Shown here one piece after another: positions 1 through 64,000 of a stretch of DNA of 64,000 nt; within the stretch, counting starts at the first letter, position 1, and every line of letters starts with the position of its first letter. The notes under the pieces were generated by a model that saw only the letters and a program-made list of their open reading frames with translations, was not told the DNA's origin and did no database searches. A program made the translations under genes and the position numbers. This DNA is from a virus (taxonomy: Duplodnaviria > Caudoviricetes): positions 32,001 to 96,000 of IMG/VR virus record IMGVR_UViG_3300028832_000114; one strand, given 5' to 3'.

Positions 1-1316
1 GACCATAATATTAATTGCTTAATTAAAGAAACCGAATATGATTTAAATGCTGCGGAAGCCCGCCTAGAGATTGTAGATGGATTATTAAAAGCATTAGCAG
101 ATATTGATAATATAATTGCTTTTATTAAGAAATCTGAGTCAAGTGCAGCCGCACGTGATGGTTTAATTAAAGAATATAAATTTACTGAACCTCAAGCAAA
201 ATCAATTGTTGCTATGAGATTAGGTAGTTTGGCTAAACTTGAAGGTGTTGAGCTTAATACAGAAAAAGCTGATTTAATAAAAGATATTAAAAATTATAAT
301 AAAATTTTATCTTCAAAAGATAGTCAAATAGAAATTATAAAAAATAAATTAAATGAATTAGTTAAAAAATATGGTGATGATAGAAGAACTGAGTTAGCAC
401 AAATTGATATTCCAAAAGAAGATAAGGAAATTCAAGCCGTTGTTCCTGAAGATGTTGTAGTTATGTTATCTCAATCTGGAGATATTAAGCGTATTCCTAA
501 ATCAAGTTTTAGAACCCAAAGAAGAAATGGTAAAGGTGTTAAATCAGAAGATGACGCAGTATTAGCATCTATCAGAACCAACACTATTGATAATTTATTA
601 TTATTTACTAATAAAGGCAAAATGTATAAAATATTAGTTGATAAATTACCTGTTGGAACAAACGCTTCAAAAGGTCAAAATATTGCTAGTTTAGTATCAA
701 TAGAATCAGATGAAAAAGTAATGGCGGCAGCATCATTAGATAAGGTGTAGATGCAGATTATGTTGTCTTTATCACAAAACAAGGAATTGTTAAAAAGTCA
801 TTATTATCTGAATATACGGGTCTTAAAAAATCTACTGGAGCTCAAGCTATTAAGTTAAAAGATGGTGACAGTATTGCTAATGTTCTATTTATGAAAGATG
901 AAGATTTAATTTTAGTATCTAAACAAGGTATGATGATTAGATTTACTACAAGTGATATTGCCCCTATTGGAAGAGTAACCACTGGTGTAAAAGGAATTAG
1001 ATTAAATGAGGGAGATGAAATTCTAACCGGAGTTATGCTTAAAGGTGGAACACATCTAGTCCTAATTAATAAAAGTGGAACTGGTAAAAAATGTTTATTA
1101 ACAGAATTTACTCCTCAAGGTAGAGGCGGTAAAGGAGTTAAGGGTTGCGGTGAAGAATTAGCTGGTGCCGCACTGGTTAATAATGAAGATAGTTTATTAT
1201 TAATTGGAAAACCTAATAGTATATGTATTGATGCAAGTGAATTGCCAGAACAAGGTAGAACTACTATTGGTGTAAAGATAGCTAAAAATGAAATTAAAAA
1301 TGTTGTTAAACTATAA
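1..1316 (+). CDS. gyrA: DNA gyrase subunit A, C-terminal part (5'-truncated by the window edge; apparent 1-nt frameshift at ~742-744)
   Basis: Frame is open from base 1. GyrA-box-like TQRRNGKG and beta-pinwheel repeats (GRVTTGVKGI, QGRGGKGVKG). The reading continues in the -1 frame after 742 (GVDADYVVFITKQGIVKKS) into ORF 891-1316. Confidence 0.85.
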
Positions 1317-1334
1317 CAACATTTTTTATTATTC

Positions 1335-1363
1335 TTGAAAATACTGAAAAAATATTATATAAT
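1335..1363 (+). promoter_or_regulatory. sigma-A/70-type promoter upstream of ligA
   Basis: TTGAAA-17 nt-TATAAT. Confidence 0.65.
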
Positions 1364-1387
1364 ATATTTATAAGGGAAGTGATATAT

Positions 1388-3319: not shown

Positions 3320-3323
3320 TACA

Positions 3324-12376: not shown

Positions 12377-13579
12377 ATGATTCAATTAAACGATAAACAA
12401 CTTGAAGGTTTAAATCTTGCAGTAGCCAGATATAGAGATGGTGAAAAGACTACTATTATATCAGGTTATGCGGGAACTGGAAAGTCAACCTTAGTTAAAT
12501 TTATTATTGCCGCCCTAAATAATGACGGTATTGATCCAGATAAAGATGTTGTATATACATCGTTCACTGGTAAAGCAACTCAAGTATTACAAAAAAAAGG
12601 AAATAAAAATGTTAGTACATTGCACAAACTATTATATGAGTATTTTCCTAGAGCAGATGGCACATTCTTTAGGAAACCAGTATTAGATATACCATATAAA
12701 ATTGTTATTGTAGATGAATGTAGTATGGTGCCTAAAGAATTATTAATGCAACTTGCAAAATATAAAGTTCATATAATTTGTTTAGGAGATCCAGGCCAAT
12801 TGCCGCCAATAAATAAAGATGAAGATAATCATTTACTTGACAATCCACACGTATTTCTAAATGAGATTATGCGTCAAGAAGAACAAAGTGAAATAATAAA
12901 ACTTACTATGGATGTCAGAGCAGGAAAACCTTTAAATCATTTTATTGGAAAAGAAGTTCAAATATTAGATAAAGATGAGCTTACAACAGGTATGTTAATG
13001 TGGGCAGACCAAATTATTTGTTCTACCAATGCAACAAGAATAGCATTAAATAAACAAATGAGGGCTTTATTAGGTCGCTGTGATAATCCTGAAGATGGAG
13101 ATAAAGTAATTTGTCTTCGTAATTATTGAGATATATTAAGCGAAGATAAATCACCACTTGTAAATGGAACAATTGGAACATTAAAAAATAGTTTTGAAAG
13201 TTTCTTTAAATTACCTGGATATATTACAAATTATAGAATATCACAGATACCAACTGTTCTTGCAACTTTTGCATCAGATGATGGTATAACTACATTTAAT
13301 AATTTAACAATGGATAAAAAAATGATTTTAGAGGGTGAACCAACATTAACTTCTAAAGAAAATTTTAAATTAAGTAAAAATAAAAAATATGTAAATAGTA
13401 TTCCATTAAGTTTTACTTATGGATATGCCATTACTTGCCACAAAGCACAAGGTAGTGAATGGGATAATGTACTTGTTATTGAAGAAGGCTTTCCTTTTGA
13501 TAAACAAGAACATATTAAATGATTATATACAGCCGCAACTAGGGCTGCTAAAAAACTAGTTATAATAAGAAAGATATAG
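12377..13579 (+). CDS. RecD/Dda-like SF1B helicase (code 4)
   Basis: GYAGTGKST, VDECSM, GDPGQLPP, HKAQGSEW and K(W)LYTAATRA; TGA at 13127 and 13520. Confidence 0.9.
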
Positions 13580-14424: not shown

Positions 14425-17400
14425 ATGAGTAATAGATTTGAAGTTCATAGTCATACAATGTATAGTAATTTAAGACTTTTAGATAGTATTAACCGTCCGA
14501 AAGATTTAATTAATAAAGCAATTGAATTAGGATTAGCTGGTATAGCAATCACAGATCATGAGTGTATAAGTTCTCATCCTGAAATAAATTTTTATCAAAC
14601 AGAAGTTCAAAAAGAACATCCTGATTTTAAAATAGCATTAGGAAATGAAATATATTTAACTGACACAAGAGATAGTGGTCAAAGATATTATCACTTTATT
14701 TTAATAGCAAAAAATAAAATAGGTCATCGCGCATTAAGAGAATTATCTTCAAGAGCGTGGATGAATAGTTATTGGAATCGAGGTCTTGAACGTGTTCCAA
14801 CATTAAAAGATGATTTAGAAGAAATATTAAAAAAGTATCCGAATAGTTTAATTGGAACAACAGCATGTTTAGGTGGGGAATTAAGTATTAATACATTAGA
14901 ATTAATAAAATGTGAAAAAACTAATGATAAAGATGGTGCGGCAGTTGCACATAATAATATAGTAAAATTTTTGTTATGGTGCAAAAATGTATTTGGAGAT
15001 AATAATTTTTATATTGAATGTGCTCCTGGTACAAGTCGTGAACAAATCTTAGTTAATAAAAGATTTCCCGCAATTGCAAAAGCATTTGGATTAAAAATGG
15101 TTATTGGAACAGATGCACATTATCTTAAAAAAGAAGATAGATATGTTCATAAAGCATATCTTAATAGTAAGTTTGGAGAGCGTGAAGTAGATGAGTTCTA
15201 TGAATTTGCATATCTTCAAAATAACGAAGAAATAATAGAACATTTAAAAGCATCTGATTTTAGTAATGAATTTATAGATGAAATGTTTCAAAATAGTTAT
15301 GAAATATATGCAAAGATAGAAAATTATAATTTAGCTCATGCGCAAACAATCCCTCATGTTGAAGTAGAAGATTATCCTATTATAGAGATTGAATCAGAAG
15401 AATTTTTAGATAAGTATCCAGTTTTATCTGATATGTTTCAATCAAATGATCAAATAGAAAGATATTGGGTAAACAAATGTTCAAATAAATTAAGAAAATT
15501 GGGTTTAAGAAATGAAACTTATCTAAGTAGATTAGAAGAAGAGGCGGATATTAAAAGAACAATTAGTGAAAAATTAGGAACTAATATGTTTGCATATCCA
15601 GTTACACTTCAACATTATGTAGATTTATTTTGGAATTGTGGAAGTATAGTAGGAGCTGGTCGTGGTTCAAGTTGTTCAGGTTTAAATCATTATTTATTAG
15701 GTATAACTCAACTTGATCCGATACAATGGAATCTTCCATTCTGGAGATATTTAAATAAAGAGCGTGTTGAGTTAGGTGATATAGATTTAGATTTATGTCC
15801 AAGTAAGCGTCCTAAGATTTTAAATGAAATTAAAAAAGAAAGAGGACAAAATTTTAAGGCGGAAATAGATGATTTAAGTAGAAAGAATCTTGGTTGTACA
15901 TTAATAGCAACATTTGGTACAGAGGGTACAAGATCAACAATATTAACTGCATGTCGTGGTTATAGGAATGAAGAGTATCCAGATGGTATAGATGTTGATA
16001 CAGCACAATATTTATCATCATTAATCCCAAGTGAACGTGGGTTCTTATGGCCGCTTAATGATGTTATTAATGGTGATGAAGAAAAAGGTAGAAAGCCAAT
16101 TAAAACATTTATAAATGAAGTAAATATGTTTCCTGGATTATTAGATATAATGTCTGGTATTGAAGGTTTAGTAAATAAAAGAAGTAGTCATGCTTCAGGA
16201 GTTATCTTATTTGATGAAGATCCATATGAGTTTGGTGCATTTATGAGAACTCCAAAAGGAGAAATTATCACAGCGTATGATTTGCATATGTGTGAAGCAT
16301 GTGGTATGACGAAATATGACTTCTTAGTAACAGAAGTTCAAGATAAATTAACAGAAGCAATTAAAATGTTGCAAGATTATGGAGAAATTGAAAGTGATTT
16401 AACATTAAGAGAAGTATATGATAAATATTTTCACCCAAATGTTCTTCCTATTGAAGATAATAAATATTGGAAAGTATTGCAAGATAATAGTGTTTTAAAT
16501 ATCTTTCAGTTTGATAGTGATGTTGGAGGTCAAGCCGCAAAAAAGATTAAGCCAACAAATATAATGGAAATGGCGGATGCAAATGGTTTGATGAGATTAA
16601 TGACTGCGGAAAAAGGTCAAGAAACTCCAATGGAAAAATATATAAGATTTAAGAATAATATAAATTTATGGTATAGAGAAATGGACTCATATGGTCTAAC
16701 AAAAGAAGAACAAAAAGTATTAGAGCCATATTTTAAGAGTTCACATGGTGTTCCTCCAAGCCAAGAGCAGTTAATGAGAATGTTAATGGATGAAAAGATT
16801 TGTAACTTTACTCTTGCGGAAGCGAATGCCGCACGTAAGATAGTTGGTAAGAAACAAATGAATAAGATCCCCGCATTAAGACAACAGGTATTAGATCAAG
16901 CGTCAAGTCCATGTATGGGTAATTATATATGGAAGTGTGGTGTTGGTCCGCAGATGGGATATTCATTTAGTATCATTCACGCGTTAGCATATAGTTTCAT
17001 TGGTTTTCAAACAATGTATATAGCGACAAGATGGAATCCGATATATTGGAACACAGCGTGTTTAATAGTTAATAGCGGAAGTCTTGAAGAAGATAGTGAT
17101 TTTGAAGAAGACGAGGATGGATATATAGTTGAGAAAAAAGAAAAATCAACAGATTATAGTAAAATAGCAAAAGCGTTAGGAGATATAATTAATAAAGGAA
17201 TTAAAGTTAGTTTAGTTGATATAAATAGGTCAGATTATAGTTTTCAACCAGATGTAGATAATAATGAAATATTATTTGGTATGAAAGCATTAAATAATGT
17301 TGGCGGTCCGATTATTGAACAAATAAAAGCAAGTCGTCCTTATGCGGGAATCGCAGATTTTATGGCAAAGTGTCCGTTGAATAAGAGTGCAATGATTAGT

Positions 17401-18378
17401 TTAATTAAGGCGGGTGCATTTGATAAAGTAGATAGAGATAATGCGGCGGCCGCAGGTGTAGAACCACGAATCTGGACAATGGTATATTATTTAAGTAAGG
17501 TTTGTGAAGCAAAGAAAAGATTAACCTTACAAAACTTTAATGGTCTATTGCAACACGAACTTATTCCTCAAGAATTAGATTTTCAAAAAAGAACTTTTGT
17601 ATTTAATAAATATTTAAAAGCAAATCAAAAAGTTGGAAAATATTATGTATTTAATCCATCTTGCGAAGAGTTTTATAATAAGTTTTTTGATGCTGACCAG
17701 TTAGAAGTAATAAATGGTTTAACTTGTATTCTTCAAACAAGATGGGATAAGATTTATCAAGATGTTATGGCGGAAGCCCGCACATGGTTACAAGAACATC
17801 AAGAAGAAATGTTAAAGAAATTTAATATGATATTATTTAAAGAATATTGGGATAAATATGCACAAGGAAATATTTCTGCGTGGGAAATGGAATCATTATG
17901 TTTCTATTATCATGAACACGAGTTAGCACATGTTAATACATATAAATATGGAATTGCAAATTTCTTTGATTTGCCAACAGAACCTCCTATTGATTCAATG
18001 TTTAAGAGAAATGGTAAAGACATTCCAATCTATCAAACATTTAAAATAATAGGAACAGTAATTAATAAAAATGATGTAAAAAGTTCAATCACAATATTAA
18101 CGACAAAAGGTATCGTAACTGTCAAATTTACAAAAGAATATTATGCAATGTATAATCGTCAGTTAAGCGAAATCCAAGAAGATGGAACAAAAAAGATAAC
18201 TGAAAAAGGTTGGTTCACAAGAGGAACAAAAGTTATGATAACTGGGTTTAGAAGAGATGATATGTTTGTTGCAAAAAGTTATACAAAAACACAAACACAT
18301 CAATTATATAAAATATTAGAAGTAGATGGCGGCAATATGAAACTCGAACATGAAAGAAAAACAGCCGCAGAAGAATAG
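14425..18378 (+). CDS. dnaE: DNA polymerase III alpha subunit (family C)
   Basis: PHP domain (HSHTMYS..LD, AITDH, TDAHY), GAGRGS, catalytic DIDLD, HASGV, YSFSIIHA and C-terminal OB fold. All 19 Trp codons are TGG. Confidence 0.95.
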   Translation: MSNRFEVHSHTMYSNLRLLDSINRPKDLINKAIELGLAGIAITDHECISSHPEINFYQTEVQKEHPDFKIALGNEIYLTDTRDSGQRYYHFILIAKNKIGHRALRELSSRAWMNSYWNRGLERVPTLKDDLEEILKKYPNSLIGTTACLGGELSINTLELIKCEKTNDKDGAAVAHNNIVKFLLWCKNVFGDNNFYIECAPGTSREQILVNKRFPAIAKAFGLKMVIGTDAHYLKKEDRYVHKAYLNSKFGEREVDEFYEFAYLQNNEEIIEHLKASDFSNEFIDEMFQNSYEIYAKIENYNLAHAQTIPHVEVEDYPIIEIESEEFLDKYPVLSDMFQSNDQIERYWVNKCSNKLRKLGLRNETYLSRLEEEADIKRTISEKLGTNMFAYPVTLQHYVDLFWNCGSIVGAGRGSSCSGLNHYLLGITQLDPIQWNLPFWRYLNKERVELGDIDLDLCPSKRPKILNEIKKERGQNFKAEIDDLSRKNLGCTLIATFGTEGTRSTILTACRGYRNEEYPDGIDVDTAQYLSSLIPSERGFLWPLNDVINGDEEKGRKPIKTFINEVNMFPGLLDIMSGIEGLVNKRSSHASGVILFDEDPYEFGAFMRTPKGEIITAYDLHMCEACGMTKYDFLVTEVQDKLTEAIKMLQDYGEIESDLTLREVYDKYFHPNVLPIEDNKYWKVLQDNSVLNIFQFDSDVGGQAAKKIKPTNIMEMADANGLMRLMTAEKGQETPMEKYIRFKNNINLWYREMDSYGLTKEEQKVLEPYFKSSHGVPPSQEQLMRMLMDEKICNFTLAEANAARKIVGKKQMNKIPALRQQVLDQASSPCMGNYIWKCGVGPQMGYSFSIIHALAYSFIGFQTMYIATRWNPIYWNTACLIVNSGSLEEDSDFEEDEDGYIVEKKEKSTDYSKIAKALGDIINKGIKVSLVDINRSDYSFQPDVDNNEILFGMKALNNVGGPIIEQIKASRPYAGIADFMAKCPLNKSAMISLIKAGAFDKVDRDNAAAAGVEPRIWTMVYYLSKVCEAKKRLTLQNFNGLLQHELIPQELDFQKRTFVFNKYLKANQKVGKYYVFNPSCEEFYNKFFDADQLEVINGLTCILQTRWDKIYQDVMAEARTWLQEHQEEMLKKFNMILFKEYWDKYAQGNISAWEMESLCFYYHEHELAHVNTYKYGIANFFDLPTEPPIDSMFKRNGKDIPIYQTFKIIGTVINKNDVKSSITILTTKGIVTVKFTKEYYAMYNRQLSEIQEDGTKKITEKGWFTRGTKVMITGFRRDDMFVAKSYTKTQTHQLYKILEVDGGNMKLEHERKTAAEE

Positions 18379-18814: not shown

Positions 18815-21070
18815 ATGAAAGTCATTAAACGTGATGGTCGCTTGGTTGTTTTTGACCCAGCGAAAATCGAGAGAGCTATTCTCGCAGCATTCGAGGATGT
18901 AGATGGTGAAATATCTGACTACGCTAAAGATAAAGCTGAAAATATAGCAAGTTATATTGAAGGATATTATTTAGATGTTGATGAAACACCTAATATTGAA
19001 GATATCCAAGACCTAGTAGAAAAAGGTCTAATGGCAACAAAAAGAAAAGATGTTGCAAAAGCCTATATTTTATATAGGGAAGAAAGAAATAAAATTAGAA
19101 ATTCCAATAGCCAATTAATGAAGGCTATTAAGGAAAAGATTGAAGCATCAGATGTTCAAAATCAAAATGCTAATATTGATGAATATTCTTTCGGCGGCCG
19201 TATGGGTGAAGCCCGCAGTGAGTTAATGAAAGATTATGCATTAAATTATTTAGTATCTGATATGGCAAGAGAAAATCATTTAAATAATGAAATTTATATT
19301 CATGATTTAGATGCTTATGCTGTTGGTATGCATAACTGTTTAACCATTCCTTTTGATAAACTATTAGCAGAAGGATTTAACACAAGACAAACAGATGTTA
19401 GACCAGCTCGTTCAATTAACACAGCATTTCAATTAGTTGCAGTTTTATTTCAATTACAATCACTTCAACAATTTGGAGGAGTTAGCGCAAGTCATTTAGA
19501 TTGAACTATGGTTCCATATGTTCGTATGTCATTTAGAAAACATTGGATTAATGGTGTAAAATATATTGAAGATAAAGTTAATGAAATTCCTGTTCAATAT
19601 TTACCAGAAGAAACATCTATTGAAGATGAAGATTATCAAATGTTTCCAAGAGCATATCAATATGCAATGGATATGACAACAAAAGAACTTATGCAAGCTG
19701 TTCAAGGTATGTATCATAATCTAAATACACTACAATCTAGAAGTGGAAATCAATTACCTTTTACTTCTATTAACTATGGTACTTGTACTTTACCTGAAGG
19801 TAGAATGGTTACAAAAGCATTATTAGAAGGCTCTATTGAAGGTGTAGGAAAAGTTAGAAAAACTCCTATATTCCCATGCGGTATATTCCAATGTATGAAA
19901 GGTGTTAATCGTAAACCTGGAGACCCTAACTATGATTTATTTAAGTTAGCATTAAAATCAACAGCTCAAAGATTATATCCTAATTATGTTAATATAGATT
20001 GGTCTACTAACGCGGGATATGATATTAACGATCCTAAAACATATGTTTCAACTATGGGTTGTAGAACTTATAATGGTGCGGATATTAATGCTGAACCTGG
20101 CACAAATCCTCAAACTAAGGACGGCCGCGGCAATATATGTCCAGTTACTATTGTAATGCCAACATTAGCTATGGAAGCTAAAGAAGAAGCTGAAAGATTT
20201 AGAGAGGGAGCAGATGTATATTTTGATAAAATTGAATTATTTATGACGCTATTAGATAAAAAAATCCATGAAGCTAGAGATATGTTAGTTGAAAGATATA
20301 AATGGATTATTAGTCAAAATCCTGAATCTGCAAAATTTATGTATGAAAATGGATTAATGCTTGGCTATGATGGTAAGACAGTTGAAAGTGCTATGAAACA
20401 TGGAACTCTTGTAATAGGTCAAATTGGTATGGCTGAAACATTACAAATTTTAATTGGTTGCGACCATACAGAACCTAGAGGAATGGAATTAGCAAAAAGA
20501 ATTGAACAATTATTTAAAGATAGATGTGCTGAATTTAAAAAAGAATTACACTTAAATATTGGTGTTTATTATACACCTGCTGAAAATATGTGTTATACAT
20601 CTATGAAAAAATTTAGAAAAAAATATGGAATTATTCCTAATGTAAGTGATAGAGATTATTTCACAAATAGTATTCATGTTCCTGTATGGAAAGAAATGAG
20701 TCCATTTGAAAAAATTGATATTGAAAGTCAATTAACTGGATATAGTAATGCAGGATGTATTACTTATGTAGAATTAGAGGGCGGAGTTAAAAATAATTTA
20801 GACGCTCTTGAAACTATTGTTAACTATGCTATGGATAAAGATATTCCATATTTCGCAATAAATGTTCCAAATGATATATGTTTAGATTGTGGCTATACTG
20901 ATGAATTCAATGATAAATGTCCAATGTGCGGAAGCACGCATATTCAACAACTTAGACGTGTTACTGGATATTTAACAGGAGATTATAAAACAGCATTTAA
21001 TAAAGGTAAACAACAAGAAACTGAACAAAGATATAAACATAGTAAAAAATTGGAGAACTGGCATGATTAG
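18815..21070 (+). CDS. nrdD: anaerobic (class III) ribonucleotide reductase (code 4)
   Basis: ATP cone (VIKRDG), IYIHDLD, MGCRT, TPAE, CxxC-CxxC and the RRVTGY glycyl-radical motif; joined across TGA 19502. Confidence 0.95.
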
Positions 21071-23142: not shown

Positions 23143-23424
23143 ATGACAATAGAAGAAAAAATACAAAAACATCAAGAATTATTGAATATCCTACATGAAG
23201 TTTATATTGCAAAAAATCATGATTATGGGGATAGTGTTCATGATACTTATAATAAATATGGAATAGTTTCTTTTTTGGTAAGACTTGAAGATAAATTAAA
23301 TAGAGCTAGAACAATTAGTTCTAAATCTCAAATGGTAGAAGATGAAAAATTGAAAGACACTTTATTAGATATGGCAAACTATGCTATTTTAGCAATTTTA
23401 GAGTTGGAGGATAATAATGGATAA
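23143..23424 (+). CDS. nucleotide modification associated domain 1 (DUF1599-like) protein
   Basis: KNHDYGDS...RLEDKLNR...[12 protein letters not shown]. Confidence 0.8.
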
Positions 23425-24646
23425 AAAAATAAAAGAAGCATTAGAAAAAGAAATTATAAGACAACAACAAAATATTGAATTAATTGCGAGTGAAAATTAT
23501 GTATCTAATGATATATTAAAATTACAAGGAAGTATATTTACAAATAAATATGCAGAAGGATATCCCTCTAAAAGATATTATGGGGGATGTGAAAATGTTG
23601 ATACTGTTGAACAATTAGCTATTGATTATGTATGTAAATTATTTAATGTAAAATATGCAAATGTTCAACCTCATAGTGGTAGCAGTGCTAATATGGCGGT
23701 ATATAGAGCATTATTACAACCTGGTGATACTGTATTAGGCATGAATTTAAGTTCCGGTGGACATTTAACACACGGATATAAATTAAATTTTAGTGGAAAA
23801 GATTATAATATTATTAGTTATGATGTTGATTATAATGGATATATTAATTATGATAATATTGAAGAATTAGCACTACAATATAAACCTAAAATGATTATAG
23901 CAGGCGCTTCCGCATATCCAAGAAAAATAGATTTTGCAAGATTTAAAGATATTGCAGATAAATGTGGTGCATATTTAATGGTTGATATGGCACACATAGC
24001 TGGATTAGTTGCGGCAGGTTTTCATCAAAATCCTTGTGATTATGCAGATGTAGTAACTTCCACTACACATAAAACACTACGTGGACCTCGTGGAGGAATT
24101 ATATTAACAAATAATAGTGAAATTAGTAAAATAATTAATAAAACAATATTCCCAGGTATTCAAGGTGGACCTTTAGAGCATGTAATCGCCGCAAAAGCTC
24201 AGTGTTTTTATGAGGCACTACAATCCGATTTTAAAGAATATCAAAAACAAGTATTAAAAAATATTACAGCAATGGCTGAAGAGTTTCGTTCACTTGGGGT
24301 TTCTTTAGTAAGTGATGGCACTGATAATCATTTAATTTTAGTTGATGTATTTCACTCTTTTGGTTTAACAGGGGCGGAAGCAGAAATAATTTTAGATAAA
24401 ATTCATATTACAGTTAATAAAAACACTATTCCAGGAGAAACATTAAAAGCAACTGAGGCAAGTGGTATTAGAATTGGTAGTCCTGCTATGACAACTAAAG
24501 GACTTAAAGAAGAAGATTTTAAAACAATAGCAGATATTATTTATATGGCTTTATCTTTAAGAACTGATAAAAATGCATTAGAAAGACAAAAAGAAAGGGT
24601 ATTAGAAATTACAAATAAAATTTATTATGAGCAAACTAATTTTTAG
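23417..24646 (+). CDS. glyA: serine hydroxymethyltransferase
   Basis: [32 protein letters not shown] and the PLP lysine motif [13 protein letters not shown]. Confidence 0.97.
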
Positions 24647-28682: not shown

Positions 28683-29609
28683 ATGAAATATTTAATTACA
28701 GGTAGCGGTTATTTGGCTAAAAATTTAATAGCTAGATTGTTAAACCACCCAGACACTGAAAAAATTAAAATCTTTTCAAGAGCAGAAAAAGAACAATGAG
28801 AAACAAAAACTCTTTTTAATAATGATTCTAGATTAGAATTTATTATTGGAGATGTTAGAGATTATCAAGCAATTTGTACTGCTTTTGTTGACGTAGATCG
28901 TTGTATTCATACTGGCGCAATTAAAAGAATTGAAGTTGCAGAAAAACAACCAATGGAAGCAATTAAAACTAATGTAATTGGTAGTATGAATGTTATAAAT
29001 GCGGCAATCGCTAATAAAGTTAAAAAACTTATACTTATCTCAACTGACAAAGCGACTTCCGCAACCACTTGCTATGGCAGTACTAAATTCTTAATGGAAT
29101 GTATGGCATATGCAAACGAAAGTGATACAGATATTATTTGCACTCGTTATGGAAATGTATTTGGTTCAACCGGCAGTGTTGTTCCAATATTTGATGAATT
29201 AAGCAAACAAGGTAAACCATTAACTATTAGAAATGGAGAAATGACTCGTTTCTTTATGGAAGTAAGTAAATGTGTTGATATTATTATAACTGCATTAGAT
29301 TGTGGGAAAAATGGAGAATTATGGATATATGCTAGTAAAGCCTGTACAATTAAAGATCTAGCCGATGCTTTTGGCGGAGAACAAATTATTACTGGTGTAG
29401 AAAACATTGAAAAAAATGATGAAGCCCTTATTACTATTAATGAATTAAATCACAGTATAAAAGCTGATGAATATTATATTATTCGTAAAGATTATAAAAG
29501 TGACATTGAATATACAGAGCCGTTAACAAGTTATACAGCAGAAAGATTAACACAAGATGAAATTAAACAAATGATTAAGAATTGGAGGATGGCAAATGAT
29601 AAAAGTTAG
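28683..29609 (+). CDS. NDP-sugar 4,6-dehydratase/epimerase (PseB/CapE-like, Polysacc_synt_2; code 4)
   Basis: ITGSGYL, IFSR, IGDVRD, KTNVIG, ISTDKA, YGSTK, RYGNVFGSTGSVVP, MTRF; one TGA. Confidence 0.88.
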
Positions 29610-30180: not shown

Positions 30181-30181
30181 A

Positions 30182-33321: not shown

Positions 33322-33329
33322 GAGGAATT

Positions 33330-33899
33330 ATGAAACTTAGTATAATTACTCCTTACTTTGACGCTTTGGATTATACAACAGAATTGGCAAACAAACTTAT
33401 TCCTCAATTAAATAAAGATGTTGAATGAATTATAATTGATGATGGATGTCATGAAAAAGAACTTAATAAATTTTCTAAAAAAGTATTACACTTAGCTCAA
33501 AATCGCGGCTGCGCGGGATTACCGCGTAATATAGGTTTAGATGCCGCCCAGGGCGAATATATTACATTTGTTGATGCTGATGATTTAGTGGCGGACAATT
33601 TTGTTGAAGCAATTCTTAATAAAATAAATACCTCAACATTTGACTATTGTTATATGAATTGAGAAAGATTAGATAAATTATTTCACACAAATGTAAAAAA
33701 GGGTCGTCCTGAATGAAATTGTAGTGTATGAGGAATTGTATATAAAAAAACACTGATAAACTCTCATCGTTTTAATGATAAAAAAATTGCAGAAGATTAT
33801 GATTTTAATAAAGAAGTATTAAATGGAACGCAAGAAATTATTACTGATTTTCTATACTTTTATAGATTAAATAAAAAAGGAATTAGTCGTAACTATTAA
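33330..33899 (+). CDS. glycosyltransferase family 2 (code 4)
   Basis: SIITPYF, IIDDG, PRNIGLD, FVDADD, AEDYDFN; four TGA. Confidence 0.85.
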
Positions 33900-33911
33900 T
33901 AAGGAGGTATT

Positions 33912-35012: not shown

Positions 35013-35050
35013 TTAATTAAATTAACTACTTTTTTTATTTTACAAAAATA

Positions 35051-35079
35051 TTGCGTTCTAAAAAATTTTTGTGTATAAT
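35051..35079 (+). promoter_or_regulatory. sigma-A-type promoter, following a terminator hairpin at ~35008-35040
   Basis: TTGCGT-17-TATAAT. Confidence 0.55.
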
Positions 35080-35106
35080 GAAAGTAGAGAAAAGTAGGTG
35101 TTGATT

Positions 35107-35616
35107 ATGAAAATACTTAGTTTAGATTTGTCTACTAAAAGTTCAGGATGAGCAATATTTGAAAATGGTATGTTAATGAAATCTGGATGTATTACATCTT
35201 CATCTTTAGATTTAATTAAAAGAATTAAGATAATGACTGCAGGAATCCACGATCTTATAAATGAAAATGGCCCAATTGATAAAATCATTGCTGAAGAAGT
35301 TAGACCAGAAGGGACTGGATATGGTGTTGGAAATCAAAAGACACACAAAGCATTAATGTATCTTCAGGCGGCAATTAATTTTATGTTATATGATGATTTC
35401 GATAAAAAAGAAATGGAACTTATATATCCTAGCTCTTGAAGGGCGGCTATAGGAATTCACACTGGCCGCGGTATTAAAAGAGCTAGTTTAAAAGAAAAAG
35501 ATATTCAATTTGTAAAAGAAAATTATAATCTTGATGTTAATGATGATGAAGCGGATGCTATCTGTATTGGATACTCTTGCTCTCACGATGAAGAAACCGA
35601 TATAAATTGGGAATAA
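35107..35616 (+). CDS. RuvC-like Holliday junction resolvase (code 4)
   Basis: ILSLDLSTKSSG(W)A, IAEE, PSS(W)R, DDEADAICIG. Confidence 0.85.
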
Positions 35617-43920: not shown

Positions 43921-43972
43921 CAACAAAAAAAGCCGCGCAATAGGAAACGAATTATCTCCTATTACGCGGCTT
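43921..43972 (-). terminator. 16-bp terminator hairpin in the 5' leader of the cassette (attenuator candidate)
   Basis: AAGCCGCGTAATAGGA/TCCTATTGCGCGGCTT followed by a U-run; lies between the candidate promoter and the first gene. Confidence 0.75.
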
Positions 43973-44005
43973 AAAATGTCGTAATAATAATTTCATTCAA
44001 TCCAT
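43952..44005 (-). CDS. putative leader peptide MD(W)MKLLLRHFKPRNRR (alternative start 43996)
   Basis: Preceded by AAAAGGAA; its TAA stop lies in the terminator loop. Confidence 0.4.
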
Positions 44006-44067
44006 TTCCTTTTTATAATTCTAGTAAAGATGGCATACAATAACATTGTATCTTCATCCTTACATAT

Positions 44068-44124: not shown

Positions 44125-45072
44125 TTATCTTCAACGACCTATTGCTAACCAACAAAATCTTAATGGCGAACCATATAATGCTGTTTGCCCTGCATCTGCA
44201 GGAGGTAAATAAGAATACCTTCTATAAAAACAACAATTTGTATTGTTGTTAGGTGTTGGAATAATATTTGTCGCTAAAATATTTGCCTGGCCAACTGAAG
44301 ATGCACTAATATATGCTGGATTAGAAATAACTGTAACATAAGAATTAGTACAAAAAGGTTCAGGATATGTAACTGTTAAATAGCTATCAGGAACAGCCTG
44401 CCCACCACTAGAGAACGTTGCTATTCCTCCCTCAAGCATTAAACCGCCATCAAATTTTATCCAGTAAGTATAATTAGATCCTCCATCTACTACTTTTAAT
44501 CCACTGGTATATCCTAATGCTTTTCCAGGTTTATAAGTAGTCGCCTCTCTAACTTCAAATTGTACATTATAATTATTTTTAAATCATTCTCAAGTCTTAT
44601 CTGAGTCAAGAACATAAAATTCAATAGCAATGTATTTCATTGTACCTGTTGCACCAGTTGGTTTTAAATTAATTTTAGATTGACTAATAGCAAGGGTGCT
44701 TGATGTTTGAGATGCTTTTAAATAAGCACTTGTTCTTGCCATTGCTTGTCCATTTTCATTAAATCCAACAATATAATATGAACAAACTCCTATTGGTAAC
44801 CCAGAAAAATAATAAGTTCCATTAACTGTTCAATCAACTGGAATTAAATTTGAACATAACGCAGATGAAGAAGGAGAACCTACTAAAGTATCTGAATTAT
44901 ATCCCCAATAATATCAACCTGTAATTAAATTTTTAGTATGAATTTCATCTATATATATGGGAGCTGTAATTGGTCTTCTTCCAATTAAATAACTTTTTAA
45001 CATGTAATGTCCATGTGCAATTCCATCACTATCTAAAAACATTGAATCATTAAATTTAAAAGCTTTTGACAT
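44125..45072 (-). CDS. tail fibre/receptor-binding-type protein with a gp53-like C-terminal domain (code 4)
   Basis: YWIKFDGGLMLEGG...VTYPEPF...CWLAIGR(W)R; several TGA. Confidence 0.65.
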
Positions 45073-54595: not shown

Positions 54596-57500
54596 TTACG
54601 TTGTTAAAGTACAGGTTGTAATAATTCCTTTCTTAATAACAAAATGAATATTTGCATAATCACCAGTTCAAAAATCTTTTGAAACACCTGCAGTGCCATT
54701 AATTCTCAATTCTCCGTCTGGATTTAAATTTACATAGGTTCCTGATTTAATTCCCACTGCGCTACCAGCATCTATATTCATATTTACATTTGCATACACA
54801 CGACCAGAGCCACCAGATCCAAATGAAACGTAACCAATTTGATTACCCGCACCAGTTCTTGAACTTGCACTACGGAACGAAATTGATGAAGTCCCACTTG
54901 ATCCAGATCCAGGATCTGCAGTTGCACTTGCAACATTTAATCTACTTACATATGGATGACTTGTTCATCCAGATGATGCAAATCCCATTCTTAAAAATCC
55001 AGTACCATTATAAACATCTAACATACCAGATGAAATTGTATTAGCACTAACACTTGTAATATGTCCACTACTAATTTTTAAATCTCCATTACTATCAATA
55101 GAACATCCTCCAATAGTTCCAGCGGTTGCTGTAATAGTTCCACCTACTGTGGCATCACTTAATACAGCATTTTTAGCATAAATAGTTCCAGTATTAGTTA
55201 CACCAAAATTATCTCCAGCCTTAAATACTATATTAGATCTGTTTGTTCCACCGATAGTTGCAGTTATTCCAGTATTACCTAAATATAATGCATTGCTGGC
55301 TGTATAAAGTGCATTTGCACCAAGTGTCCATCCAGCAATCTCCCCAGATGTTGCAGTAATTGCACCAGCTTTAGTTACTTTAAATGTAGATCCAGTACCA
55401 AGTGATATACCATCTTTACCAATATATACACCTTCAGTATTTGCCGTTAAACTAGATTTACCATTATATATTGCATCTGCAGTAACAGTTCAAGGCCCAA
55501 TTGTGCTTCCAGCACCCGCACTTAATGTTCCACTAATTGTAGCACTTTTTGCAGTTAAAGCTCCTGCAGTTGTTACTTGAAAAGCACTTGTTCCATCTGC
55601 AACAGCTCCTAGTGCAATACCATTTGTTCCAATGTAAAAACCCGATGCATTTGTATTAAAATTAGATTTTCCATAATAAATAGCACTATTAGCATTTCCA
55701 GTCCCATTAGTACCTATTGTAATTTTATTTGTTCCGTTTCCAAAAGTTCCTGCGGTAGCATTAATTGTACCACTTATAGTTGCTCCAGATGAATATAAAT
55801 TACCAGATGAGTCTACTCCAAAATTAGAGCCAGATATAAAACGTCAATTAGCAGCCGCATGTCCAGCTATTGTTTTATTAGCGCCTAAATTAGCAGTACC
55901 TAAATATAATGTTGGATTATCAACTGACCCGCCATACCATAATTTATTTGTTTCAATTTTTCAATTTGCAATAGTTCCAGATTTTGCAGTTAATGTTCCT
56001 GTATTAGTAACTGAGAATACAGAGTTAGCTCCTAAAGCAATTCCATTTGTTCCTATGTAAACGCCATCTTTAGCATCTGCTAAACCTGTTTTTGTATTAT
56101 AAATATATGTATTTTTAATTGTTCATCCGCTAGCACCATTTCCAATATATCCTGAAGTTGCGGTAATTTTTCCTTTTAAAATTACATTATTAGCATATAA
56201 ATTACCACTATTATCAACTTGAAATATAGATTTAGTAATAGATTCACCATTAACACCTTCATAGGTAGTTGTTTTTCCTAAACCAATACCTTCTTTTCCA
56301 AGATAAAAACCATCACTATTAGCATCTAACGATTTTTTAGTTGTATATACTTGACCTTTTGTTCCATTTAAAAATAATTGATTATTATATAATACATCGT
56401 CAGAACCATCCTTTCCAATAGTCCATCCTCCAATGTGTCCGCCGCCTGCAGCAGTTAATTCACCATTCTTATCTACTTTAAATTTTCCACTACCAAATCT
56501 AATTTCAGGTGTAGCTAAATCAATAAGCATACCGGCAGGATTTTCATTATTTTCAGTATAATTAATTGGTAAACCAACATTTTCATCATCAGTATGATAA
56601 CTTTTTCAAAAATTATTACTATAAAGTAATGCTTTATCTGTTTGTGGGTCTACAATAATTTGTCCACCGTTTCCACCCTTACCAAAAATGGCAGAACCAT
56701 TTTTACTATTTAAAAATAAACTTCTAATTCCTTTATGGTACCCTATTAATCCTACATCTGAATTAGTTCTTCCTCTTTCACGAACAGCACCCATATATAC
56801 ACCAGTAAAAGTTCCATCAGATTCTTTTAAACCTGCTCCGGCTTGCGGAGTTAAAATTCTACCAGCAGCATTATCTATTGAAATTGAATTTCCATCTCAA
56901 CTTTCAATTCCTGCTAATCCATGTCTATTTAAATAAAAATGGACAGGAATATGAATCTTTGCAATTTGTATATCATCTTTATCTTTAATTTTGACTTCTA
57001 TCGCATCGGTTAAACATTCTCCATTATAATCATCCTTTGGAAAATAAATTTTTGAATTTTCCATTAAATTATTTTTTGGAATTAAATGTTTATCAGATAT
57101 TCAAGAAGTACCATTTTTAACTCTTCCTTGTGTAGACCATACATAAGTTACCCTATAATCATTAGACACTGTAGAAATATCTTCAACAAATCCATTAATA
57201 ACTTTTGTTACTTGTAAAGTAAATGGCTCAGCATTATCATACATAGGGTTACGACCATCACTAGAATAACATACATATCTAAAACCAGTATTTTTAATTA
57301 ATTTTACAGCATAATCAGAAGATGTTTCCGCAGTAATAATTGGCATTGTGCAATAATAACTAATTCCTTGATAAGTTACAATACCTTGAATAATATTTGC
57401 AGGTTGATCATCTTGATATTTATCTCAATTAAATTCATATTTATGATCATTTGTTTCTTCAATTATAATAGAAGAGCTATCTTTTGTTACTGTGTCTGGC

Positions 57501-59773
57501 GTACCATTTAAAGTATTATATTTATTTTGTAAAACTTTTCATTCCACAGTAAAACTACCGCTACTATCAGTTCCATCAAATATTTTTTGTCCGTTTTCTC
57601 ATAATTGAATTCTAAATCATTTTTTTGGAGTAGCAACACCATAATTCATAATACCATTTAAAACCATTGGATAGTCATCAAAATTACTATTATTTGTATT
57701 TGGAACTATTTTACATATAATGTCACTACCATTAGTTCCAGGTTCACCCTGTTTTACAAAAATAAAATTAGTTTTTGCTTCTAAAGTTAAATTTTTATAT
57801 TTAACTGTTAATTTAATATCATTATTTGTTTTATTAATATTATATTCATCCACAATTCCATATCTCAAGCTTAAATTATTAGAACTTTCTCCAACTAATA
57901 AAGTATTTTCAGTTGGAACTTCCCATTGAACATCACATTCTTCTAAAACAATGTCACTTAAAAGATAACCTAAATTATCTGTAATTGTAAATGTTAATGG
58001 CTCAATAGTAATTGGTCTTTCTAATGAACTATTAACAGGTGAAACACCTAAATCATCATAAGTAAATACTTGAGTTCCATTAATAATATTTAAAACATAT
58101 TCACCTTCAGTCAATAGTCTATTGTGAAGAGTAATTGCGGCAGTACCTACAACTAAATCTTGTTTTTTAACCAAACATTTAAAAGTTGTATAATTAGTTA
58201 CTTGACGCATATCTATTTTAATAAGTTTATTTTTTTCAACCCTTTGAATATTATCATATTTATCTACAATTACTTGAAGCGCGTCCAAGTCTGCTTGAAC
58301 GGCCGCAGGCATTATTTCTTCAGTTGCAATCTTTGCTTGTATTAAGTCACGATCTGCAATCGCTTCATTATATTCAATATTTTCATCATAAGTTTCTAAT
58401 AATTCAGTTACGGTACCATTAACATCAACCATGCTTCATGAATAAGTATAATCTTCTAAATTTTCTTCTTTATCAACATAGCAAGTCAATGTTGGTCTTC
58501 CATTATCAAAATAAAATTTTGTACCTAAACTACTAATAATACTAAGTTCTGTGTTACCTTCATAAACATAAATACATATTTCATCTTTCGCAAGTATCTC
58601 TTCTCTTTTAACAACAATACATTTAATATTAGTACAACTACTATTACAAAAACTTCTTGTAATAACACATTTATCATTTTGAGTTAATCACATTTTAGTT
58701 TGTTCATCAACGATATTATATTCATTAATACATTCCCACCCCTCACCAGCATAATTTATATAATTAACATCATTAATTTTTACTTCATTGTTTTCTCTAA
58801 ATCAGTAATATTGAATTTCTGTATTATTAACAATCTTACCATCGTTTCTTAGTACACTTTCAATAGTAACAGTATCGGTAGGTAAACTAAATTCATTAAA
58901 ATATCCTTTACCAGGTTTACTTAACACCAATGTATATCCATTACTATTAGATAAATCTCTTAATCCATATAATTCAAAATCTTTAATAAAAATATCATTT
59001 TTTAATAAATTATCATTAGTAATAATATAAGGAAAGCCCTTTTCAAAAATGTAAATAGATTTAACCTGAATAAAATTTTCATTACTAATTTCAAAAATAT
59101 CATATTGTTTAGTATAATCTTTTTGATCATATGGAGAACCTGTCATCCTGTTAACATCAACAACAAAATCTTTTTGAATAACATCACCGGTAATATTATC
59201 CGTAAATTCCATAGTGACACCAAATCCAAAATTACCACTTTTTTGTTGTTCTACTGGTAAATCGGTTTTAAACTTAGCTCCACAAAGTATCATTCTTGTT
59301 TCAGCAATAGATTCAGAAAAAACTATCGGGTCAAAATTAATATTATTAACATTATTTTCTACATCATATAAATATAATTTATTATTATCTTTGTAAGAAC
59401 ATAATTCAAATTCTTGTATTGCGGAAATTGAATTTCCAACCTCTATTTCATATTGTTCATCTTCTTCCTTAATAATATTTCTTTCTATTGCTTCTTTATC
59501 AACAGTATCAAGAATTGTTTTTGTTTTACTAAAATCATTATTAGGAATTGTAATGTATACTAAAGTTCCTTCTGGATACTTTATATCAATATTACTAGAA
59601 TATGCTTCAATTTCACTATCTTGGTATTTTATTTTATATTTTCCAGTTTCCGCATCTTCAAGTGAAATAATTGTCCCTTGAATTGTTCTATCATAACCAG
59701 CTTTAGACACTGCATTATCTACCATAGTTTCAATAGCATCAAGAATTTGATTTTCATAATTAACACTACTCAT
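54596..59773 (-). CDS. very large tail/central fibre protein, ~1725 aa (code 4)
   Basis: Fragments 58802, 57617, 57101, 56606 and 56123 share one frame; C-terminal G.I.GW.I repeats. Not every intervening codon was checked. Confidence 0.7.
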
Positions 59774-59857: not shown

Positions 59858-59859
59858 AT

Positions 59860-59896
59860 AAAAAAAATAGGTAGTTATTATTTTAACTACCTATTT
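59860..59896 (-). terminator. terminator after the tape measure gene
   Basis: AATAGGTAGTTA/TAACTACCTATT stem followed by a U-run on the minus strand. Confidence 0.7.
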
Positions 59897-62800
59897 TCCA
59901 TTACCCTTTGTGCAGCAACATTAACTAAATTATTTAACGCCTCTTCAATTTCTCTTGCATTACGAACATTAGGGAATGATGCGTCAATGTGAACATCTTG
60001 TTCTAATAATCCATTGCCGCCACTAATATTTGTATAACCAGAAGCACTTGCATTTGCTAATTTAGATAATACTGTACTACCAAGTGAATATGTTAATCCT
60101 CTCATTACTGAAATAGCATTTAACATATTTTTAGTATCTGATTGATTTAAAACAAGTTCTTTTTGATGTAGAGTTGCTAAACGACCTTGACCACTTCAAT
60201 TGCCAGTATAACCACCAGTATCATATCCAGAAATATCTTTAATTTTAATCCATCCAACTCATGAACTACTCTTACTAAAATCAGGACTTGTTCCAACATG
60301 AACTCAACCCTTACTCTTATAATTTGTATTTTGGATATATAATTTTGAACCTTTTTTATAATATGGATTTTTTATGTAACCGCTTCCAACAGATGTTGCA
60401 TAACTAGAATTAATTGTAACTTTATCTCCAACATCAACTTGTCCATTGCCTTGAGGTTCTACTTTTGTAGGTTCTTGTTTTTCTTCAAGAGTTTCATTAT
60501 TATTTTCATTATTGCCTTGATTACCTTGTTGACCATTTTTTTCTTCATCTTCAATTTCATCTATTTGTTTATTCTTTTCTTTATGTTCATATTCATAAGC
60601 TGCGGTTGCCGCATTTTTTGCAGCCTCTTCTGCATCTTTATATTGTTTTGTTAATTTAACAACTTCATCATAAACCTTTTTAACATATTTTAATTCTTTT
60701 TTATAACAGTCAATTAAATCTTTATTATCTTTTACTAAAGTTTCTGTTTTAGTAATATCTTCATCAAGACCATTTTTAATTTCTTCAAATGTTTTGCCAG
60801 ATGATTTTTCTAAAGCCGCTATATCAGATGAATATGTTTTTTGAGCTTTAGTAATTTTTTGTCAACTTTTTTTAGTAACAGTAGCAAAACCACTTTCTCC
60901 ATTGAACGTATCGTTCATATTGTTTGTATTATCAACAATATTTTGTGCAGCTTCTTGAAAACTTTGAGACATTTCATTAGTTTTACTTTTTACAGAATTA
61001 GATGTTTTAGTAAAGGCTAAATCAATTGCCGCAATTCCACCTTCTCCATCTTCTCCTGTTAAGAAGTAATCAAGCATATCTGAAACACCAGTTTTTCAAG
61101 TTGGCACCATTTCACGTAAAATTAAATCTTTTTCAGTATTGGTTAAATTTGCAAAAGCCTCTTCAGACAAATCATTTAAATTTTTTCAATCCTCAAAAGC
61201 AGATTCTTGTAAATTATATTTTGAATCTAAATAATCTTGTTCAATTTGAACCATTAACTCATTATATTGTTCTTGGATTAATTTTTCTTTTTCTGCACGT
61301 TTTTCTGGATCTGTAATCATTGCAGCTTCTGCCATTTTTTGCTGATATTCACTATAAATGCTGTAAGCATCATTTAATACTTGATTATATCTTTCTTTAT
61401 CAAAATTATATAATGAATTAGTTAATTGATCAACTTGATCTTGCGCTTTTTGAATTTCATCTTGATTAGCAGTATACTGATAAGTATAATTACCTTGGCT
61501 ATCTCTTCTTAATCTCATTTGAGATTTATTTTGACGAGCATCTTCAAGGGCTAATCTAGCAACTTCAAGTTCATATAATTTATTTGCTCTATCTAAATCA
61601 TATTGAGTTAATCTATCTTTCTCTTCTAACGTTGCTAATTGCTCATCCATAATTTTTTTCAATTTTTGTTGAGCTTTAGTATTATCAGATTTATTAATAG
61701 CATCTGTATATTTTTTCTCTAATTCTCGAATGCCATAAGTTGCATTGATTGTATCAAGATATCTGTCTGCATTTTTATTAATTAGTTCTCATTGTTCATT
61801 TACAAAATCCAATCCTTTTCCACCCGTTACTTCATTATTTAAAGCTTTAAAAATTCCATTAATAGCATTTTGAAATTTATCAACTGCATTTTGCAAACTT
61901 TCTTCTAATGTTTTGTTAAGATCTTGGGCTGCAGTTTTTCAATTTTCAGTAACAGCTTCAAGTCTCTCTTCTGCATCTAAATACTCATCTTGAACTTCTT
62001 TTCATTCTGTACTATTTTCTTCTAATGTACTTAATTCTTTTTGTAAATTATCAACTCTTGTTTGTTCTGCGCTCATTTGTTCTGCTCAGAATTGTTTTTC
62101 TTGTCTTTGAAAATCTAATGTATCATTATAATTTTCTTGCTGTCTTGTATAAAATTGGTCTAACTCTTCATATGAGTCTTCTCCATAAACTAATTGAATA
62201 ATTTTTTTATCATGTTCTATTAAATCATTTAATAAATTATAATTATCAATTTGTTTATCAAAAGCTTCTTGAGATGCAGCTATTTGATCTAATACCGCTT
62301 GATGTAAATCTCTTTCAACTTGTTCAGCATCTTCAATAGATTGCATTAAAGCAGTATATTTATCTTTAAGTTCATCTAATGCTTTAGCTCGATCATTAAC
62401 AGTAGTACCATCTGCCGCCTTAGCGCTATAAACGGAACTAAGACCACCTTCATCCATAATTTTTAATTCTCTAAGAATTGATTGTACTTGTGATGTTTGA
62501 GCTTGAATATCTCCACGACCATTTGCCGCATAATATGTTTGAAGATCTGCTTTTCTAGCTTTAGCATTACCTAAAATATCGCTTTCTCTAATACCTTGAA
62601 TATTTTTCTTTTTTCATGCATTTCAATCTCTTGTTGCTTGATTCATATCAAGAGTAATTTCTAATTTTAAATTAAATTTTTGAATTTGAATTTCTATTTG
62701 TTTTTCTAATGCATCTAATCTACTTTGTTCTAATTCTGGAATTAAACTAACTGTAACTTCATCATATCTATCAATATCAGATTTAAATTTTTCATATTTT

Positions 62801-63999
62801 TCTTTTGCTTTACTTAAAATTTCATCATCGTCTCATTTTTCTTGCTGAGCTTTAGTTAAACCATTATATTTATCTACTAATGCATTATATTCAGCTTCTG
62901 CAGCATCTAATGCTTCTTTATAATTAGAAACTGTTTTATCACTGTTAAACACAACACCCCGTGCAGCTAATTTTTTAGCTAACTCATCTTGTTCGCCCTC
63001 AGCAATTTTTAATTTTTTAGTATAATTATTAACTTGAGTATTTAATAAACTCCATTGTTGATTTAAATTTTTTAATAAATTACCACCAACAAGTTTATTT
63101 TGTTGAGATTCTAATTTTTTTAATGAATTATCAATTTTTGTAATCTGAGTATTAATTTTATGATATCTATCTACTTCATCATCTATATGTTTTTCTTTTT
63201 TAGGTTTTGATTTTGATCCGCCGCCAGATTTTCCTTTTCCTGTGTCTGTTGGTGGTTTATATTTAAAATTACCAACATTTGCACCTTTAAACTTAGTATT
63301 ACCAGCATTAATTACAGGAATATTGATTTGTCCCTGAACATCTGTAGTTGCTTTATTAGTAAATGTTTTTGTTTCTCCTGTCGTTGGGTCTGTATATTGG
63401 TATGTTGCGGTTTCAGAGTTAACCTCAGTAAGAGTTGCTGGAACCGTATCAATTGTAGGATTATAACCAATACCAGCTAAAATTTCATTAGCCTGTTCTT
63501 TAGTAATATCAAAATTTCTTAATAAAATATTTAATTTTTCTGCTAGTTGTGGATCAATTTCAGTTCCAATTTGTATCTTTTCAAGATCTAATCCCTGAAT
63601 ATAATTTACCAAATCATTAACTTCATTTGGTAATTTATCTTTTCAATCTGTTTTTAAATTAACAATAAAATCTTTTGTTGCAGCTTTTTGTAAATCATCT
63701 AAAACCTTTATATCACCACTTGCTAATTTTTGTATTTCTTTTAAATGATCTCTAACAAAATCTTCTGATATATCTTTTCCTAAAATATCTTTTACTGCGG
63801 TAATAGCTTTACCAACCTGTTCCATTTCATCTGGAGTAAGATTTTGTCTTTTTTGTCATTTCTTAAGACTATCTTCTCCATCTTTTAATGCCGTATTTAA
63901 AGTATCTAATTTTTTACTTAATTTATAATGATGTTCTGCTGCGGTAATAGCAAATGAATCATTTTCTTTTAAAGCTTTGCTATTTTTTATTAATTCTTG
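59887..63999 (-). CDS. tape measure protein, C-terminal part (5'-truncated; code 4)
   Basis: Six ORF fragments in one frame; long helical/coiled composition; terminal YDTGGYTG.(W)...LATLHQKELVLN...IDASFPNV. Confidence 0.8.
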
Positions 64000-64000
64000 A

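Follow-up and report, generated by a model that had tools for sequence, protein, structure and literature searches.

TGA read as tryptophan in an SPbeta-like phage of uncultured Bacilli: probable decoding by a phage tRNA in a standard-code host

The window considered here is a stretch of 64,000 nucleotides, corresponding to bases 32001–96000 of the 104,464-bp IMG/VR viral contig IMGVR_UViG_3300028832_000114, and our subject is the meaning of the numerous TGA codons lying inside its open reading frames (ORFs). The contig is classed as linear, has a GC content of 29%, and is about 70% complete according to CheckV. Under the standard bacterial code (code 11), 31% of the window is covered by ORFs of 300 aa or more, versus 72% if TGA is read as a sense codon (code 4), a rise in coding density which bears out the proposal of the initial annotation that TGA is translated; the respective values for TAG and TAA taken as sense codons are 32% and 39%. 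The code-4 ORFs tile the window, with a switch from the plus to the minus strand at about 35.6 kb. The gene models, built greedily from ORFs of at least 100 aa with only TAA and TAG as stops, include 81 ORFs for the whole contig with 157 in-frame TGA versus 190 TGG codons. The 46 ORFs situated wholly inside the window contain 111 TGA versus 108 TGG, the TGAs being shared among 29 of these ORFs.

The in-frame TGAs are evenly distributed over the ORF deciles, and five of them fall into the last 15 codons of ORFs, compared with about six expected by chance according to our own estimate. Since there is no excess at the ORF ends, we see no sign of TGA still terminating genes. By construction the models close with TAA (51) or TAG (30). 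Reading of TAG as a sense codon was considered and rejected: it does not increase the coverage and TAGs are located at the ORF ends, so that this triplet is a stop despite the presence of a tRNA(CUA) on the contig. One of the only five late TGAs belongs to a 315-aa gene of the minus strand, which finishes as ...TGA AGA TAA (window 44125–44133) and would be stopped two codons sooner by the standard code.

Orthologous codons were compared in three related contigs, in which the phage TGA stands opposite TGA or TGG at 100 of 106 positions: 51 of 52 in a STEW19 scaffold (L027) with an 84% identical glycosyltransferase, 29 of 34 in an NCBI metagenome contig (L029) with a 64% identical one, and 20 of 20 in the third contig (L028). 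The exchange of TGG for TGA also occurs in the reverse direction, and it is TGG, not GGN or TCN, with which TGA is swapped. On these alignments, TGA and TGG behave as synonymous codons.

The main test of the TGA identity was provided by a 796-aa glycosyltransferase (window 30931–33321, plus strand) possessing 14 TGA and one TGG. Its sites 344, 368, 613, and 719 are occupied by Trp in 68, 47, 66, and 56 of 71 homologues (31–50% identity). Because the close relatives of this protein are themselves called with code 4, two distant homologues were checked at the DNA level; they are encoded with table 11, have no in-frame TGA, and carry TGG at the same four sites (four of six to seven sites). In the Enterococcus phage EF1, which is cultured and uses the standard code, W stands opposite six of the 13 TGA sites that could be aligned, among them both sites of the RecD-like helicase, while the remaining ones include Y twice, F once, and Ser once. 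The SPbeta comparison is weak alone, as it extends to only 10 TGA sites, where the partners are F, Y, G, V, M, and W as well as a single gap; W occurs at one of the 10 and Phe or Tyr at four more (aromatic at five of the nine aligned residues), and Gly occurs at two. Taken over all these comparisons, TGA is paired with Trp far more often than with any other residue.

The same conclusion is suggested by the internal repeats of a 1725-aa tail-fibre-like protein (window 54596–59773, minus strand), where the motif G-x-I-x-G-W-T/K-I is written with TGG at residues 1117 and 1482 and with TGA at residues 1217, 1271, 1428, and 1603, which confirms the mixed usage of the two codons in this repeat noticed earlier. 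As far as the meaning of the codon alone is concerned, we consider it almost certain from these comparisons that TGA encodes Trp.

Several individual motifs put forward by the initial annotation as family-wide Trp positions fared unequally. Both TGA sites of the RecD-like gene correspond to Trp in the EF1 helicase, including the one in the K(W)LYTA motif, although R, N, or Q takes this place in the solved structures of RecD and Dda; judging by the aligned sequences, this site is Trp only within the close subfamily. In the RuvC-like gene (window 35098–35616), one TGA site is opposite W and the other is opposite Y in the EF1 comparison; Pfam RuvC has no match on the contig. The RecJ sites are not conserved Trp positions, since the aligned residues are F, G, or Y. 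The TGA site of NrdD was also rejected as a family-wide Trp because the solved structures have F or E at this place.

The tRNA genes are located outside the window. As stated in the initial annotation, the window itself contains neither a tRNA-Trp(UCA) nor a release factor (RF) gene; we found no tRNA of any kind in it. However, the search of the full contig that had been recommended for a UCA-anticodon tRNA was successful: an array of 23 tRNAs, a tmRNA, and a ROOL RNA occupies contig positions 11.4–22.0 kb on the minus strand, and it includes a 96-nt tRNA-Trp(UCA) (contig 18093–18188, minus strand), revealed by ARAGORN and Rfam and located 13.8 kb upstream of the window. It adjoins a tRNA-Trp(CCA) (contig 18014–18089, minus strand). 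The tRNA(UCA) possesses A1-U72, G2-G5:C68-C71, and G73, which represent the full bacterial set of Trp identity elements as listed by Giegé and Eriani (PMC9976931), and it has the acceptor stem and G73 in common with tRNA-Trp of the candidate hosts described below. The domains of tryptophanyl-tRNA synthetase (TrpRS; PF00579) and of RF (PF00472) were not found on the 104-kb contig, about 70% complete according to CheckV. Because no TrpRS gene is present on the contig, the simplest reading is that the tRNA(UCA) is probably charged by the host TrpRS.

The structure of this tRNA also gives some ground for the opposite opinion, that TGA specifies a residue other than Trp: Gly (its meaning in code 25), Ser (on account of the long extra arm), selenocysteine (Sec), or Cys. 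A long extra arm together with G73 represents the determinants of seryl-tRNA synthetase in bacteria (PMC9976931), ARAGORN labels the gene as tRNA-SeC, and Gly is found at two of the SPbeta-aligned sites. However, the 7-bp acceptor stem and the 4-bp D stem do not correspond to the Sec geometry. Gly, Ser, and Sec are all at odds with the orthologue swaps, the homologue alignments, the EF1 sites, and the tail repeat: TGA is exchanged with TGG and not with GGN or TCN, and Ser at one EF1 site and Gly at two SPbeta sites are to be compared with the general prevalence of Trp. Nor can the codons be easily attributed to pseudogenes or assembly errors, as all 157 sites are in frame and in-frame TGAs are kept by related phages from other samples. 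We regard this whole group of explanations as extremely improbable.

Importantly, the candidate hosts appear to use the standard code. Relatives of the phage polymerase with 78–89% identity were detected in three GTDB metagenome-assembled genomes (MAGs) of about 1.1 Mb each, labelled as Bacilli bacterium, uncultured Bacilli bacterium (Lapin-004 isolate), and uncultured Erysipelotrichaceae bacterium (RUG13160). All three possess prfB (encoding RF2) above the curated cut-off, stop-free rpoB frames of 1081–1215 aa, and murG; two of the three yielded a tRNA-Trp(CCA), and none a tRNA(UCA). In one of these MAGs (L147; G002:C103:2490-3521), the six-frame match to prfB shows one internal TGA and one TAA, which may reflect the programmed +1 frameshifting that is usual for RF2. 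In addition, the phage serine hydroxymethyltransferase (SHMT) is 73–75% identical to the chromosomal SHMT encoded on long contigs with 26% GC, one of which is labelled Bacilli bacterium and which carry PolC, MreC/D, a PBP5-type peptidase, and SpoIIM. In the 16 genes analysed on the SHMT contigs, 37 TGG codons were counted but not a single in-frame TGA, one gene having TGA as its stop; genes for the cell wall are situated in the vicinity. The phage itself encodes two peptidoglycan-directed proteins, an NlpC/P60 protein and a PG_binding_1 protein. Taken together, these similarities support an uncultured, walled, low-GC, standard-code member of the class Bacilli as the putative host, and they favour the earlier suggestion that the recoding is specific for the phage and occurs on a walled member of Bacillota.

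A host which itself uses code 4, being a Mollicutes of the Mycoplasma/Spiroplasma type or a reduced lineage of Bacilli, would offer another scheme, with the phage only following its host. It would be in accord with the very low GC content of the phage and with the small genomes (0.7–1.3 Mb) of the candidate hosts, which are Bacilli, a class that includes the code-4 Mollicutes. Nevertheless, we find this scheme very improbable. The MAGs combine RF2 and TGA-free rpoB with tRNA-Trp(CCA) and have no tRNA(UCA), the closest cellular SHMT contexts are devoid of in-frame TGA, murG in the MAGs and the peptidoglycan-binding and -cleaving domains of the phage indicate a cell wall, and the phage brings its own tRNA(UCA). 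Moreover, its TGA usage is not uniform along the contig.

This unevenness corrects the opinion that TGA is Trp throughout: the in-frame position and the Trp identity stand, while the evenness does not. A second correction concerns the tRNA-Trp(UCA), which is present at a short distance from the window. To the left of contig position 62.9 kb, where the tRNA array and the genes for replication and nucleotide metabolism are located, TGA accounts for 40 of 188 Trp codons (21%) and TGG for 148, whereas to the right of it, in the genes for glycosyltransferases, virion, and tail, it accounts for 117 of 159 (74%), with 42 TGG (Fisher p = 5e-23). The tRNA array is thus placed in the TGA-poor part.

The TGA-poor module for replication and nucleotide metabolism occupies window 1–30139 on the plus strand and comprises the genes for NAD ligase, a yorF-yorL-like block (Sak4, DnaB, and RecJ among its products), RecD, Pol III alpha, NrdD/NrdG, SHMT, thymidine kinase, dUTPase, and others. 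Pol III alpha has 19 TGG and the ligase eight TGG, both with no TGA, while DnaB, RecJ, RecD, and NrdD have one or two TGAs each. In the gene for the RecD-like helicase (window 12377–13579, plus strand), the helicase motif VI is situated downstream of the second of two in-frame TGAs, and read-through is needed for its function. In the gene for NrdD, the anaerobic ribonucleotide reductase (window 18815–21070, plus strand), TGA is codon 230 of 751 and the glycyl-radical domain lies downstream.

The first TGA-rich block (window 30140–35616, plus strand) consists of the RuvC-like gene and glycosyltransferase genes, the latter including a GT10-like gene, the 796-aa gene, which is a GT2+GT4 fusion, a GT2 gene, and a GT4-like gene. 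A cassette directly ahead of the structural module (window 28683–35012) comprises a gene for a sugar-nucleotide dehydratase and five for glycosyltransferases, and within it TGA usage leaps from one per gene to 14:1. Since the jump occurs inside this cassette, the TGA-rich domain begins there and not at the first virion gene. The virion and tail module (window 35729–64000, minus strand) is TGA-rich too: in its large genes, the TGA:TGG ratios are 10:2, 9:2, 5:3, 4:0, 9:4, 16:6, and 27:6. The last pair belongs to the gene for a 2880-aa YomI-like tape-measure protein, located on the minus strand and extending beyond the window as far as contig position 100529.

Considered jointly, the in-frame TGAs with their Trp identity and uneven distribution, the tRNA gene, and the use of the standard code in the candidate host lineages make it likely that TGA is read as Trp by the phage tRNA in a standard-code host. 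We suggest that the tRNA-Trp(UCA), probably charged by the host TrpRS, would compete at UGA with the RF2 of the host. The tRNA array and most of the replication genes, which avoid TGA, could then be translated at once, while the glycosyltransferase and virion genes, with about three quarters of Trp encoded by TGA, would give full-length products only after accumulation of the suppressor tRNA. Such gating of late genes has been proposed for recoded phages (bioRxiv 10.1101/2021.08.26.457843), and we are inclined, with some reserve, to ascribe the same timing role to the TGA distribution in our contig.

The uneven usage of TGA may also be a trace of history with no timing function, if the TGA-rich half was recombined from a more deeply recoded phage or evolved faster under the AT pressure. 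SPbeta-like phages are mosaic, TGA and TGG are freely interconverted among the close relatives, some TGAs are present in the replication genes too, and the early genes keep TGG at conserved Trp positions, with TGA at less conserved sites. On the other hand, independent recoded clades have been reported to show the same early/late bias (bioRxiv 10.1101/2021.08.26.457843), and the complete absence of TGA in Pol III alpha and the ligase is hard to obtain by drift alone at such a low GC content. We consider the historical scenario unlikely, though less so than the alternatives concerning the host code or the encoded residue.

Several points tell against the proposed scheme of TGA decoding by the phage tRNA in a standard-code host and against its timing role. 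The early/late split is imperfect, as DnaB, RecJ, RecD, and NrdD each require one or two read-throughs, with essential domains encoded downstream of TGA. Few TGAs are present in the genes for the two peptidoglycan-directed proteins, whereas Borges et al. emphasize that lysis genes are recoded. There is no significant bias towards weak termination contexts: the base following the in-frame TGA is A in 46% of cases versus 37% generally (p = 0.07–0.12). About 30% of the genome is missing, and a “code-change module” with TrpRS or RF1 could lie there. The link to the host comes from metagenomic binning and gene similarity, and not from a CRISPR spacer or an integrated prophage; in the order of one MAG, a sample of 201 genomes (this MAG included) contained no other carrier of the phage polymerase, hence prophage evidence is absent. 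Finally, the meaning of TGA is deduced here from the sequence.

With respect to its lineage, the window represents the middle of an SPbeta-like phage genome of approximately 150 kb, the likely hosts being uncultured low-GC Bacilli from the gut or rumen. The gene order yorF-yorG-yorH-yorI-yorJ-yorK-yorL is that of SPbeta (tblastn matches at SPbeta 100052–110841), and the YorL-type Pol III alpha is 39% identical to the SPbeta enzyme over 99% of its length. The yorF-yorL order, the polymerase of this identity, the giant YomI-like tape-measure protein, and the size class are shared with SPbeta and with the Enterococcus phages EF1, VRE9, and H1, which, unlike the phage studied here, use the standard code and therefore served as controls for the TGA alignment.

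By its kind of recoding, the phage corresponds to the “Agate”-type phages with code 4 described by Borges et al., being a new phage with a known type of code change. The Agate-type phages are about 127–154 kb in size, low in GC, and found in the cattle, pig, and human gut with predicted standard-code Firmicutes hosts; their TGAs accumulate in structural and not in the neighbouring replication genes, and they encode TGA suppressor tRNAs mostly without a TrpRS or RF gene (bioRxiv 10.1101/2021.08.26.457843). A phage TrpRS + RF1 module occurs only in some clades and so is not obligatory. Our phage resembles them in size, low GC, a likely Firmicutes host, cattle-type relatives, and location of TGA in structural rather than replication genes. 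It differs in the TGA-poor peptidoglycan-directed proteins, where Borges et al. stress the recoding of lysis genes, and in an extra CCA hairpin of its suppressor tRNA, which they did not describe. Terminase was not found on the contig, the structural module being cut at the contig end, and the likeness to Agate is therefore based on the shared features and not on a terminase tree.

Another related system is represented by phAss-1 (proposed Phassvirus), a gut phage of Bacillota with a genome of about 136 kb, suppressor tRNAs, and recoding of late genes, in which TAG is read as Gln with the aid of three tRNA(CUA) (PMC10607447). Its similarity to our phage involves a tail protein (the 952-aa protein of our contig is 31% identical to it), the presence of suppressor tRNAs, and the late-gene recoding; in contrast, our phage has the TGA to Trp change and terminates 30 of 81 genes with TAG, yet possesses one tRNA(CUA). 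In Mycoplasma/Spiroplasma (code 4) and in Absconditabacteria/Gracilibacteria (code 25), UGA is also a sense codon read via tRNA(UCA), meaning Trp in code 4. However, the change in these organisms is organism-wide and is accompanied by the loss of RF2, whereas the candidate hosts considered here keep RF2 and avoid in-frame TGA.

From a practical viewpoint, the contig and its relatives need translation table 4, as otherwise the virion, tail, and glycosyltransferase genes become fragmented; the tape-measure gene alone holds 27 TGAs. The recoded phages thereby gain an SPbeta-like member from poorly known Bacilli with small genomes. The contrast between a likely host lineage with RF2 and no in-frame TGA and a phage with 157 of them supports the idea of code switching by phages during infection, and the suppressor tRNA may explain how the host TrpRS is used without a phage-encoded synthetase.

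The variable region of the tRNA-Trp(UCA) comprises 26 nt and is folded into a hairpin with a stem of 5 bp, the 7-nt loop of which (CUCCAAA) is identical to the anticodon loop of tRNA-Trp(CCA). The segment from this CCA hairpin to the 3′ end (nt 50–96) is aligned in one block to the host-type tRNA-Trp with 79–83% identity. When IMG/VR was scanned using a pattern in which nothing was fixed except the T loop and the UCA anticodon arm, 72 unique tRNA(UCA) genes were obtained: 19 with a short variable loop, 15 tRNA-Sec-like ones having a long arm without the UCCA motif, and 38 with a long arm containing UCCA. The hairpin alignment was composed of 36 unique viral sequences, that is, the phage's own and 35 of the UCCA-type genes. 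It includes 30 different extra-arm stems with 4.72 of five stem positions paired (94%), while shuffling of the stem partners gave a mean of 2.94 and a maximum of 3.44 (1000 shuffles). All 36 loops read N-U-C-C-A-A/U-N and G73 is invariant; the hairpin is conserved with compensatory changes in its stem.

It is possible, and we put it forward tentatively, that this hairpin represents a selected “decoy” anticodon for TrpRS, defining an undescribed kind of tRNA which underlies the code change. The hairpin would offer to the unmodified host TrpRS the C34-C35-A36 determinants lost from the decoding arm; if this is true, a phage could rewrite UGA without a synthetase of its own. The loci around the decoy-arm tRNAs show a median coverage gain of 0.15 under code 4 versus 0.04 under code 15, although these loci are short and the contrast to the other tRNA classes is modest. 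Our literature search revealed no paper describing an extra CCA hairpin, and Borges et al. remark only that suppressor tRNAs may be non-canonical (bioRxiv 10.1101/2021.08.26.457843). Although it is located outside the window, this hairpin is the part of our data that is likely to surprise a specialist.

Some other features of the contig deserve mention. The tRNA array contains a well-scoring putative amber suppressor tRNA(CUA) (contig 16294–16370, minus strand; Rfam 64.8 bits) with a C-C mismatch in the anticodon stem and an acceptor stem unlike that of the phage's own tRNA-Gln, and yet TAG ends 30 of the 81 genes. The ROOL RNA (174.5 bits) and the tmRNA (89.9 bits) are located inside the same array at contig positions 11661–12265 and 13570–13988, respectively, on the minus strand. 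The phage SHMT (window 23417–24646) has no Trp at all, and its similarity to the chromosomal enzymes suggests a recently acquired host gene. Its neighbours encode thymidine kinase, peptide deformylase, dUTPase, and NrdD/NrdG, the latter pair marking an anaerobic lifestyle.

The region at window 43930–44010 on the minus strand contains a strong terminator (43930–43972) composed of 19 pairs followed by a T run. It is entered by a small ORF which reads ATG GAT TGA ATG AAA ... TAA and has its stop in the terminator loop; the two elements may form an attenuator. An idea that this ORF is a leader peptide sensing the code through its in-frame TGA appears doubtful, since the second ATG, situated after the TGA, starts the same frame at a more favourable distance from the AGGA motif, so that translation from it does not depend on reading through the TGA.

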